DNA of 64,000 nt, taken from positions 1,952,001 through 2,016,000 of the forward strand of contig CAXXDV010000001.1 in NCBI GenBank assembly GCA_963674745.2, in the 5' to 3' direction. Under the pieces are notes generated by a model. That model saw only the letters and a list, made by a program, of their open reading frames with translations, did not search any database and was not told where the DNA came from. Positions 34,505-36,870 of this stretch are shown one piece after another. The translations under genes and the position numbers were made by a program. Origin of the DNA: Desulfosudaceae bacterium. Lineage in GTDB: Bacteria > Desulfobacterota > Desulfobacteria > Desulfobacterales > Desulfosudaceae. Each line of letters opens with the position of its first letter. The stretch's first letter is position 1.

Positions 34505-34700
34505 AGCAGCAAGGTGCCGTAATCGGTTGCCCGGAAGGCACAACCGATAACGGGTAAAAGGAAAGATGGTGAGATGCCATCGCATCCCAGCCGTTGCCGT
34601 GATCGGGGACGAGAACCGCACGAAGCCACTCTCAAGGCGAAAGCCCCGGGGGGAAGGCGCGGTTTAAGAATGATCCGTAAGCCGGAAAGCCTGCCTGGCT
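34505..34700 (+). promoter_or_regulatory. Cobalamin (B12) riboswitch
   Basis: AGGTGCC...TAAAAGGAAA-GATGGTGAGATGCCATC, GCCGTGA, GCCACT...GGGAAGGC, B12-box-like AGCCGGAAAGCCTGCC. Confidence 0.85.
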
Positions 34701-34762
34701 GTGAACAACAGGATTTTTGCTGGATAAAATTCTTCTGATGATTGTTTATCAGGAGGTGTTTT

Positions 34763-35902
34763 ATGACAGCAGGAATCAACAAGTCGTTCGGGTCCGTAAT
34801 TTCCCGCCTGGCCCGCCACCATCACCTTGAACGCCACGAAGCCGAACAGGCGTTTACCACCGTCCTCAGCAACGCCACCACGCCCATGCAGCAGGGCGCG
34901 TTCCTGGCCGCTCTGGCCACAAAGGGCGAGACCGAAGCCGAGATTGCCGGTGCCTGGGACGCCATCTATAATCTGGATACGGTAAAAATTGACCTGGGCT
35001 CAGACTGCTCTCTGGTGGAAAACAGCGGCACCGGCATGGACACCTTCAAGACTTTCAATATCAGCACCGCCGCCGCCATAGTAGCTGCCGCCGGCGGCAT
35101 AACAATGGCGAGGCATGGCGCCAGATCCATAACTTCCACCTGCGGCACGGTTGATATGGCCGAAGCCCTGGGGGTGGATGTGGAATGCCCGGCCGAGATC
35201 GTGGCGGACAGTATCAAGTCGGCAGGCATCGGTCTTTTTAACGGCATGAGCCCGACCGTTCATCCCCGCGCGCTGGCCCGGATTCTGCCGCAGATTCATT
35301 TCGGATCAATTCTCAACACGGCGGCTTCTCTGGCCAATCCGGTCAGGCCCACCGTTGGCCTGCGGGGGGTATATTCTAAAGACGTCATGCTGCCTGTCCT
35401 GCGGGTCATGAAGGCCATCGGATATAAGAAGGCCATCGTACTTCACGGCAAGGTGCGCGGTGTTGCCCCGGAGCAGGCCGGTATGGATGAGGCTTCCGTA
35501 TGCGGCCCCACCTATTGCGCCCGGCTATGCGAATCCGGTGAAATCGAGTCGTTTGTTATTCATCCTGAAGATCATGGCCTGGGCGCTGGGTTACCCCTAC
35601 AACTGGCGCCTGCGGGCGATATTGTCTTAGAGGCAAGACGCTTTGTTGACTTGATTCGCAACCGCGAGCACGGCATCAGAAAAGAAGCGGTTCTGCTTAA
35701 TGCCGCACTTGTGTTTTATGTCGCAGAAGCCGTGACAAGCATTCAGAGCGGCCTGGAGGCAGCAACCGTTATCCTGGAGAGCGGGCGGGCCTTTGACGCA
35801 CTGGGCGCCTGGGTAGCGGCCCAGAATCGCGATCCTGAAAAAGGGTTGCGGCGGCTGGAACAATGCGCGGCTTACAGCTCATCAAAAAGGGTGGCGTCAT
35901 GA
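34763..35902 (+). CDS. Anthranilate phosphoribosyltransferase (TrpD)-like glycosyltransferase family 3 protein, divergent active site
   Basis: GAFLAAL..KGET..EI.G, GTGMD..KTFNIST, ARHGARSITSTCGTVDMAEALG, GMDE, LLNAA; AGGAGG RBS; not in a trp operon. Confidence 0.82.
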   Translation: MTAGINKSFGSVISRLARHHHLERHEAEQAFTTVLSNATTPMQQGAFLAALATKGETEAEIAGAWDAIYNLDTVKIDLGSDCSLVENSGTGMDTFKTFNISTAAAIVAAAGGITMARHGARSITSTCGTVDMAEALGVDVECPAEIVADSIKSAGIGLFNGMSPTVHPRALARILPQIHFGSILNTAASLANPVRPTVGLRGVYSKDVMLPVLRVMKAIGYKKAIVLHGKVRGVAPEQAGMDEASVCGPTYCARLCESGEIESFVIHPEDHGLGAGLPLQLAPAGDIVLEARRFVDLIRNREHGIRKEAVLLNAALVFYVAEAVTSIQSGLEAATVILESGRAFDALGAWVAAQNRDPEKGLRRLEQCAAYSSSKRVAS

Positions 35903-36870
35903 AACTGTTGTTGACCGGACAAAAACAACTTTCGGTTCAGCTGTCCGATGATTACGGGACCCCTCCCGAAGGAGAAGCCCTGCTCGGGGTACTGTGCTGC
36001 GGTGTCTGCAGGACCGACGCCAAGATGTGGGCGCAGGGGCACCGGGATCTTGTCCTGCCCCGGGTTCCCGGCCACGAAATGGTTGTGGCCGACGAACAGG
36101 GGCGGCGGTATGCGGTCTGGCCCGGTGATGCCTGCGGCAAATGCCGGTATTGCCGAAAAGGGCGTGAGCATCTCTGCCGTCAGATAAAGATCATCGGTTT
36201 TCACCGGGACGGCGGTTTTGCCGATCATGTCATCGTTCCGAAAACCAGCCTCATTCCGCTTCCTGATACCCTGGATACTGATGTTGCCTGCCTTGCCGAG
36301 CCGGCCGGTTGCGTTATGCATGCGCTTGATAAATGCGGACTGGGTAAGCAGGCGCACGTGCTGATTTACGGCGCCGGCACCATGGGCGTTCTGGCCGCAA
36401 TGGCCGCGCGGGTTGGCGGTGCCGAACCCATGATCGTTGAAAAGAACCCGCACAAGATGAATGCCGCCCGAATAATCCTCGCAGATGCAGGCATACCGTG
36501 CGTTCAAGAGGCGAACCAGATCGATTTTGACGTGGTCATCAATGCCTGTCCGGATCCCGATGCCTTTCGGCAGGGGTTGAAAATCCTGGCCAAAGGCGGA
36601 TGTTTTTGCTTTTTCAGCGGCCTGTCAGGCGGCGCCGTAACAGATGTTGATTTGATTAACCTGATTCATTACCGTGAAATCACCATCGTCGGATCTTACG
36701 GCCTGAATCGGGAAGACATGCAAAGGGCTTTGCCGTTCCTTTCAAAAAAGCAAGCAATTCTGAAGGCTTTGATCGATACGACAATCAAACCGGAAGAGGT
36801 GGCGGCCGTTATGGGGCAGGTCCTTTCGGGCAGCGGATTTAGAAAAATAATAAATTTTAGCAAAAGATGA
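35899..36870 (+). CDS. Zn-dependent medium-chain dehydrogenase (threonine/sorbitol dehydrogenase-like)
   Basis: GVCRTD and GHE catalytic Zn, CGKCRYC-x7-C structural Zn, GAGTMG Rossmann motif; ATGA overlap with the upstream gene. Confidence 0.88.
   Translation: MKLLLTGQKQLSVQLSDDYGTPPEGEALLGVLCCGVCRTDAKMWAQGHRDLVLPRVPGHEMVVADEQGRRYAVWPGDACGKCRYCRKGREHLCRQIKIIGFHRDGGFADHVIVPKTSLIPLPDTLDTDVACLAEPAGCVMHALDKCGLGKQAHVLIYGAGTMGVLAAMAARVGGAEPMIVEKNPHKMNAARIILADAGIPCVQEANQIDFDVVINACPDPDAFRQGLKILAKGGCFCFFSGLSGGAVTDVDLINLIHYREITIVGSYGLNREDMQRALPFLSKKQAILKALIDTTIKPEEVAAVMGQVLSGSGFRKIINFSKR

Follow-up and report, generated by a model that had tools for sequence, protein, structure and literature searches.

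A 64,000-nt stretch of the genome of a Desulfosudaceae bacterium (NCBI GenBank assembly GCA_963674745.2, contig CAXXDV010000001.1, positions 1,952,001 to 2,016,000 of the forward strand; hereafter, the window) carries an operon in which a cobalamin riboswitch precedes the genes of a TrpD-like phosphoribosyltransferase and of a zinc-type dehydrogenase of the medium-chain dehydrogenase/reductase (MDR) superfamily. On comparative sequence evidence, the TrpD-like protein, the zinc MDR dehydrogenase, and CobT make up a widely conserved module of three enzymes, of which this operon encodes all but CobT, and we consider it highly probable (roughly 85%) that the pair acts together with CobT during the assembly of the lower ligand or the nucleotide loop of cobamides and is repressed by corrinoids. 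The pair probably carries out an as yet undescribed step in the assembly of B12-type cofactors. No partner of CobT of the TrpD-like or dehydrogenase kind turned up in the full-text literature searched, a corpus that leaves out most subscription journals, and a Chlorobium paper (PMC8620254) mentions trpD in a figure legend only and makes no link to B12.

The identity of the lower ligand matters, as it decides which organisms can use which cobamide. A comparative-genomics survey recognizes only bluB, bza, and arsAB as lower-ligand determinants, with a ligand predicted for 58% of the predicted producers (PMC6461909). The pair described here is a concrete and testable candidate for a missing cobamide step because it is fused or adjacent to CobT, is preceded by a riboswitch, has relatives in 317 species-representative genomes and 506 metagenome stretches, and is kept in an apparent corrin-ring auxotroph.

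Association of the pair with CobT

A word-indexed protein search listed 120 clusters of relatives at 58–100% identity, the named ones of which belong to the Desulfobacterales and to other Thermodesulfobacteriota. When species-representative genomes were scanned, 317 relatives were recovered, and the locus counts for this first gene order (TrpD-like gene, then dehydrogenase) are taken from the best 80 of these 317. Named isolates among the carriers of the module include Desulfospira joergensenii DSM 10085, Desulfocicer vacuolatum DSM 3385, and Desulfamplus magnetovallimortis (L025, L038, and L062). A dehydrogenase homologue lies directly 3' of the TrpD-like gene in 74 of the 80 loci; four of the remaining six reach a contig end and the other two (L046 and L047) are without a dehydrogenase. 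In 52 of the 80 loci, the dehydrogenase is fused to CobT within a single protein of about 700 aa, the dehydrogenase being N-terminal and CobT C-terminal, with scores for the fused CobT domain of 441.6 bits to DBI_PRT (Pfam) and of 438.6 bits to TIGR03160, for a cut-off of 319.3. A separate CobT is the next gene in two loci, and ten loci have a layout like that of the window, in which a downstream stretch of at least 900 bp is free of CobT; for this CobT count, five loci were truncated and 11 had no called dehydrogenase open reading frame (ORF).

The riboswitch is shared as well. The match to RF00174 in the window is a full-length aptamer that scores well above the Rfam gathering score (70.1 bits vs. 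31.5), and it can be aligned with the riboswitches found 5' of the orthologous gene in seven relatives. An nhmmer profile built from eight riboswitches gave a riboswitch-like match upstream in 69 of the 80 loci (two of these matches being weak), and RF00174 itself was above its gathering score in seven of the 11 loci of the first gene order in which it was sought. More than 120 nt separate the TrpD-like and dehydrogenase genes in 54 loci, and 53 of these (e.g., L031:7124-7324) encode there a conserved protein of about 67 aa, the AlphaFold (AF2) model of which, with a mean predicted local distance difference test score (pLDDT) of 96.6, consists of four strands, a helix, and a strand. This small protein has no match in Pfam or NCBIfam and no PDB fold match at E <= 0.001, and it was not found in the genome of the window.

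A second gene order emerged from 151 sampled genomes that belong to the same taxonomic order, in which we called module-positive any genome with a TrpD-like match of at least 388 bits. Under this definition, 29 of the 151 genomes are module-positive, and canonical TrpDs score at most 233 bits, which leaves a clean gap. CobT was found in 27 of these 29 genomes, the two exceptions being assemblies of about 380 and 560 contigs, and CbiD in 21 of them, such that the module also occurs in likely cobamide producers. Among the 12 loci fetched from module-positive genomes, six display a riboswitch followed by the dehydrogenase, the TrpD-like protein, and CobT as separate genes (one of the six with a TAG inside the TrpD-like frame), four have the dehydrogenase and the TrpD-like gene only, one has the first gene order, and one holds a different paralogue, of the third clade described below. 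RF00174 lies directly 5' of the dehydrogenase gene in six of the eight second-order loci tested; of the two others, one is without a riboswitch and one is too near a contig end to tell. Fusion proteins of two other kinds were each found once, both as apparent fragments: dehydrogenase::TrpD-like (P0199) and TrpD-like::CobT (P0210).

A metagenome scan with distant family members then gave 506 relatives. Among the best 80 of these 506, the dehydrogenase adjoins the TrpD-like gene in 53 loci (36 upstream and 17 downstream), the rest being four loci without a dehydrogenase despite available flanking sequence, 14 truncated loci, six canonical-like ones, and three left unassigned. An archaeal-type CobT flanks the pair on four metagenome contigs (TIGR00303, 300–391 bits for a cut-off of 240), and CbiZ is encoded 3' of the pair in L191, at a place where L194 has an unannotated ORF of equal length. 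That the link to CobT is common to different gene orders, to fusions, and to two distantly related CobT families argues for a functional tie of the pair to the CobT step. A preliminary description of this operon, made from the sequence of the window alone, had advanced the pair as a candidate pathway for the nucleotide loop or lower ligand of cobamides and had called for a neighborhood and fusion analysis of both protein families. The 52 dehydrogenase::CobT loci, the P0199 and P0210 fusions, the adjacency of CobT and CbiZ, and the shared riboswitch speak for that proposal, as both families prove to be linked or fused to CobT and preceded by a B12 riboswitch.

A metagenome locus with another type of neighbor may also be mentioned: in L152:9105-10545, the TrpD-like gene is followed by the small protein and then by a PF06189 5'-nucleotidase (454.7 bits), which might act as a phosphatase on the ribotide product or might be there by chance.

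Possible supply of a base or of a ribosyl donor to CobT

The assembly to which the window belongs is 99.96% complete. CbiB, CobU, and CobS are present in this genome and clustered together, CbiD and CbiC were not found in it, and no BluB scored above cut-off. It has six B12 riboswitches, one being that of the window operon and the other five being associated with a BtuF::CbiZ fusion and its ABC importer, a TonB-dependent receptor, ExbB/ExbD, a NicO-like transporter, and a lone CobT. Since CbiC and CbiD were not found and CbiZ, CbiB, CobU, CobS, and one CobT are present, the organism looks, from its gene content, like a corrinoid salvager or remodeller, and the fact that the pair is kept in such an organism would place its function at the nucleotide-loop stage. 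The two proteins of a genome of the same genus are 69% and 60% identical to those of the window, with synonymous sites saturated and dN/dS therefore uninformative. As for the salvage genes, the BtuF::CbiZ fusion (L112:14527-16557, on contig C3 of the same genome) is a protein of 676 aa that joins a BtuF-like periplasmic binding domain to CbiZ, and its riboswitch-controlled gene is followed by those of a second BtuF, a FecCD permease, and an ABC ATPase.

As to what the pair contributes, we lean slightly toward the view that the B12-repressed module supplies CobT with its base, and we infer the substrate, the order of the steps, and the product as follows. When corrinoid is scarce, the riboswitch would free the sequestered ribosome-binding site, and both proteins would be made by coupled translation. 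The TrpD-like enzyme would couple phosphoribosyl pyrophosphate (PRPP) to a nitrogen nucleophile other than anthranilate, or would run the reverse reaction on a beta-ribotide, and the polyol-type dehydrogenase would perform an NAD(P)-linked redox step on the resulting intermediate. CobT would then take the product as its base substrate and turn it into the alpha-ribotide used by CobS. The preliminary description had proposed an aromatic amine or a benzimidazole precursor as the acceptor of the phosphoribosyl group, which is an inference as well. In the organism studied here, the pair would serve the salvage or remodelling of imported corrinoids by supplying the cell's own lower ligand.

This preference for base supply has three grounds. 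First, six genomes of the order sample have two CobT matches, and in each of the three that were examined (G064, G094, and G033), a riboswitch and a ThiC-like gene precede one CobT and the other is fused to the dehydrogenase, such that each CobT is tied to its own upstream unit, in parallel to units of base supply plus CobT. Second, the parts left over in the genome of the window would form one complete path of supply plus CobT. In a CobT tree of 36 rows (a quick search, with 17 of 51 fused rows kept), the fused CobTs form one clade with 100% support, and the only CobT of the window's genome groups outside it, with two CobTs that in other genomes lie 3' of a riboswitch and a ThiC-like gene; these ThiC-like genes are BzaF-like by context only, and NCBIfam holds no model that separates BzaF from ThiC. 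From this placement, the lineage of the window seems to have lost both the CobT domain of the module and the ThiC-like gene of the other unit, and what remains would seem to be a single CobT and, as the one candidate for base supply, the pair; a genome of the same genus has the same layout. Third, CobT enzymes accept many bases.

A locus from a genome of the same family bears on this subject: at L119:4996-6369, a riboswitch very like that of the window (147.9 bits to the nhmmer profile and 81.8 bits to RF00174) lies directly 5' of a CobT of the fused clade, with no TrpD-like gene or dehydrogenase at the locus, and the arrangement seems to derive from the module by deletion.

One of the closest known counterparts is the bza operon of anaerobic benzimidazole synthesis, which, in the survey cited above, comprises a B12 riboswitch, BzaF or BzaA/BzaB, CobT, and BzaC-E (PMC6461909). 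Both are B12-riboswitch units that couple a dedicated CobT with enzymes encoded upstream, and both types of unit co-exist in G064, G094, and G033, each with its own CobT. They differ in that the module has a TrpD-like transferase and a zinc dehydrogenase instead of a radical S-adenosylmethionine (SAM) enzyme of the ThiC family: the two-gene operon of the window encodes neither BzaF nor BzaA/BzaB, and no second ThiC-family gene was found in the genome, its single one matching the ThiC model. On this basis, a more specific form of base supply can be put forward, albeit tentatively and with more doubt than confidence, namely a third lower-ligand route, which would need neither oxygen (BluB) nor radical SAM chemistry (BzaF). 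There, the TrpD-like transferase and the zinc dehydrogenase would make a heterocyclic base, either by building it on a ribosylamine derived from PRPP or by releasing it from one, and CobT would then take this base. If this were true, the route could account for the lower ligands of anaerobes that are without bluB, bza, and arsAB, and the 5-methylbenzimidazole reported from sulfate reducers would be one candidate ligand.

Several observations weigh against a role of the pair in supplying bases to CobT. At the window itself, CobT is neither adjacent nor fused to the pair, the dehydrogenase gene (which ends at 36870) being followed by an rRNA operon; the only CobT of the genome is on another contig, behind a riboswitch of its own, and groups, as said above, with ThiC-linked rather than fused CobTs. 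Among the 80 loci of the first gene order, 11 gave no riboswitch match upstream with nhmmer (one of them for want of upstream sequence), and the two loci that lack a dehydrogenase do so even though their contigs continue. Nor did the module and ThiC paralogues prove complementary: with a class boundary that is our own and rough, a second-class ThiC paralogue was found in nine of the 29 module-positive and in 33 of the 122 module-negative genomes. Two enzymes are also few for building a benzimidazole de novo. Lastly, the module is found beside at least three bacterial CobT clades in addition to the archaeal type, a spread that a generic function, for instance the supply of a ribosyl donor, would explain as well.

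The supply of a ribosyl donor is the main rival to base supply, although we judge it fairly unlikely. It holds that CobT receives its phosphoribosyl donor (nicotinate mononucleotide [NaMN] or an analogue) from the TrpD-like enzyme, as a beta-ribotide formed with PRPP, and that the dehydrogenase makes or regenerates the carrier that acts as leaving group. PRPP-dependent transferases of the TrpD fold give a beta-N-ribotide, and the sole ribotide substrate of CobT is its beta-ribotide donor, so that the chemistry of the two enzymes would match; the existence of the TrpD-like::CobT fusion P0210 is in line with such a match, and the very different CobT clades beside the module, archaeal type included, suit a generic function. 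However, NadC (210.7 bits) and nicotinate phosphoribosyltransferase (195.7 bits), both present in the genome of the window, already give NaMN, no clear role is left for a polyol-type dehydrogenase, and the three genomes in which the two CobTs belong to separate upstream units are better explained by base supply. A shortage of NaMN as the reason for the module was rejected because NadC and nicotinate phosphoribosyltransferase are present.

The dehydrogenase and the TrpD-like protein

Two Pfam families, ADH_N (58.1 bits) and ADH_zinc_N (52.8 bits), are matched by the dehydrogenase. In an alignment of 24 sequences, C49, E72, the four cysteines C91/C94/C97/C105, and a GxGxxG motif are invariant, and the full set of residues of a zinc MDR dehydrogenase (C49, H71/E72, E146, C91/C94/C97/C105, and G170/G172/G175), which we take to form the catalytic-zinc site, the structural-zinc (four-Cys) site, and the Rossmann motif, is conserved across these sequences. 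In the second-order dehydrogenases of L104, L105, and L108, the zinc-ligand motif G-H-E reads G-E-E, a change of His to Glu.

The Cys/His/Glu pattern, the four-Cys site, and GxGxxG are shared with L-threonine 3-dehydrogenase and the polyol dehydrogenases, which are zinc MDR enzymes too. Moreover, the best NCBIfam matches are L-threonine 3-dehydrogenase models, and several PDB sequence matches are L-threonine 3-dehydrogenases too, the best solved relatives scoring about 100 bits. These matches would favor another idea, in which the dehydrogenase provides aminoacetone or, as in the preliminary description, aminopropanol for the linker of the nucleotide loop. Yet the window enzyme falls below every curated family cut-off, its scores of 111.5 and 110.8 bits being far under the respective 380 and 458.35 of the two threonine dehydrogenase models, and its relatives are mostly fused to CobT rather than to a linker enzyme such as CobD or CbiB. 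As the supply of a linker would furthermore leave the phosphoribosyltransferase without a role, we consider it very improbable, and this part of the preliminary description is not supported.

The TrpD-like protein matches Glycos_transf_3 (155.6 bits) and Glycos_trans_3N (56.9 bits) of Pfam. Its AF2 model (pLDDT 86.4) has TrpD 9ucw as best PDB match in Foldseek (template modelling score [TM] 0.93, E 1.7e-21), and the fold is shared with TrpD (EC 2.4.2.18; TIGR01245; PDB 9ucw and 1zvw) at target-normalised TM values of 0.86–0.93 and with an hhalign probability of 100 at 33% identity. The residues G89, T90, G91, D93, N99, S101, D242, and E243, for which roles in the binding of PRPP and Mg2+ are given in a review (PMC9835598), are kept. 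The protein differs from TrpD by GTGMD in place of GTGGD, by Ala and Leu in place of Asn and Arg in the anthranilate site, by two additional residues in the FAP loop, and by a C-terminal extension. The family as a whole differs by forming a separate clade, by having no trp context in the loci examined, and by the B12 riboswitch upstream.

These differences are a property of the family. A tree of 61 rows sets the 20 canonical TrpDs apart from every relative of the window protein by a branch with 100% SH-aLRT support, and 37 CobT-linked rows form a group with 99% support. Position 92, the fourth of the GTGGD loop, is Met in 35 of these 37 family rows and Gly in all 20 canonical ones; position 120 is Ala or Ser in 37/37 (A120 in the window) vs. 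Asn in 20/20, and position 175 is Leu in 37/37 (L175 in the window) vs. Arg in 20/20. The Asn-Gly insertion (N160-G161), in the FAP loop, is present in 37/37 and a gap in 20/20. MAFFT, phmmer, and hhalign alike identify A120 and L175 as the equivalents of N138 and R193 of the Mycobacterium tuberculosis enzyme, and the spacing of 55 residues between the two positions is the same in both proteins. The review describes N138 and R193 as holding the carboxylate of anthranilate, with substitutions at these positions impairing catalysis and raising the Km for anthranilate (PMC9835598). N138A and R193L variants exist among solved PDB structures, and the window protein has the same states naturally. 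A caveat attaches to R173, invariant in the family and two residues ahead of L175, which might substitute for the lost Arg. The window thus combines a TrpD-like protein bearing M92, A120, L175, and the NG insertion with an MDR dehydrogenase and a B12 riboswitch, as in the module.

A canonical trpD (431.8 bits) is found elsewhere in the genome, within a run of co-directional ORFs. Because of this second gene, of the Ala and Leu that replace the carboxylate-binding residues, and of the separate clade, the TrpD-like protein is best regarded as a TrpD paralogue and not as a tryptophan enzyme. Three points of the preliminary description are borne out here: the departures that it had read in the signature motifs (GTGMD, RHGAR, and CGTVD) are present in the window protein and run through the family, the different substrate that they had suggested to it is consistent with the changed acceptor site, and the separate canonical trpD that it had advised looking for exists. 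The opposite view, that tryptophan synthesis is served here by an additional anthranilate phosphoribosyltransferase under B12 control, could invoke the TIGR01245 (trpD) score of 236.1 bits, above the cut-off of 199.05, the TrpD fold, and the names of the relatives, which public sources label “anthranilate phosphoribosyltransferase” (the ESM Atlas clusters bearing only “putative anthranilate phosphoribosyltransferase”). With the canonical gene elsewhere, the carboxylate Asn/Arg replaced, no trp gene beside the TrpD-like gene of the window, and none near those of its relatives in the loci examined, where only the dehydrogenase and CobT were seen, this view has very little left to recommend it. 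The correction matters for annotation, as genomes annotated under the present label would be assigned a second trpD in error.

Also very improbable is a further suggestion of the preliminary description, that the pair is a B12-independent bypass replacing a B12-dependent reaction under cofactor scarcity: B12 riboswitches do control B12-independent isozymes such as metE and nrdD, and the operon contains no named cob gene, but the suggestion is contradicted by the fusion of the dehydrogenase to CobT in 52 loci, by the archaeal-type CobT and the CbiZ that adjoin the pair, and by the presence of CobT in nearly all module-positive genomes.

A third clade of TrpD-like paralogues was also noted (L109:6552-11399 and L171:7251-11338). 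Its members score 283–291 bits to the window protein and have a GTGAD or GTGGD loop; no riboswitch was found at either locus. Both have a RibD_C reductase and a molybdopterin oxidoreductase as neighbors, and L109 has in addition a TrpF-like phosphoribosylanthranilate isomerase, such that this clade may belong to a different arylamine-ribosylation pathway.

Operon layout and neighboring features

The features of the operon are collected in table 1. The riboswitch and the two coupled genes had been recognized in the preliminary description, and this layout holds: the operon consists of exactly two genes, with no cob, cbi, or btu gene inside. The TrpD-like ORF spans 34742-35902, and its likely start is the ATG at 34763, 7 nt past the Shine–Dalgarno sequence. 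For the dehydrogenase, the conserved beginning “MK.LLTG” of 23 aligned homologues designates the ATG at 35899, which overlaps the TGA of the TrpD-like gene (35900-35902) as ATGA, so that the translational coupling of the two genes is real.

Table 1. Positions, in the window, of the features of the riboswitch-controlled operon.
Feature	Position	Strand	Basis
Sigma-70-like promoter candidate (TTGACA, 18-nt spacer, TATTTT)	34309..34338	+	Consensus scan, 10/12 matches
Cobalamin riboswitch aptamer (RF00174)	34498..34712	+	70.1 bits, E 3e-15, model positions 1-189
Putative expression-platform hairpin pairing the Shine–Dalgarno sequence AGGAGG (34751-34756)	34731..34756	+	11-pair stem
TrpD-like phosphoribosyltransferase, CobT-linked subfamily, 379 aa	34763..35902	+	Family matches, tree, diagnostic residues
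Zinc-type MDR dehydrogenase, 323 aa	35899..36870	+	Pfam and NCBIfam matches; open frame from 35863

Downstream of the aptamer, the hairpin that pairs the Shine–Dalgarno sequence lies in a segment (34690-34775) with a predicted fold of -30.8 kcal/mol (z -4.33), none of 200 shuffles being equally stable. From this hairpin and this stability, control of the operon by the riboswitch is probably exerted at translation initiation, the hairpin presumably forming or opening in response to the ligand. As for transcription, the scanned region contains seven promoter-like sites for 2.0 expected from shuffles, which makes the promoter candidate of table 1 a weak one. Between this site and the riboswitch, the octamer AACCACAT forms a tandem array (34372-34420) of 6.2 copies, or of 3.1 copies of a 16-nt unit.

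The 5' neighbors of the operon, namely 6S RNA, RNase Y, and tyrosyl-tRNA synthetase, are unrelated to it; the 6S RNA (RF00013, 89.7 bits) lies at 30781-30963, 5' of the RNase Y gene. On the 3' side, the rRNA operon begins at 37136 and has tRNA-Ile and tRNA-Ala in its spacer. A near-consensus promoter-like site (36999-37027; TTGACA, 17-nt spacer, TATATT, 11/12 matches) stands directly past the dehydrogenase stop codon, 109 nt ahead of the 16S rRNA gene.

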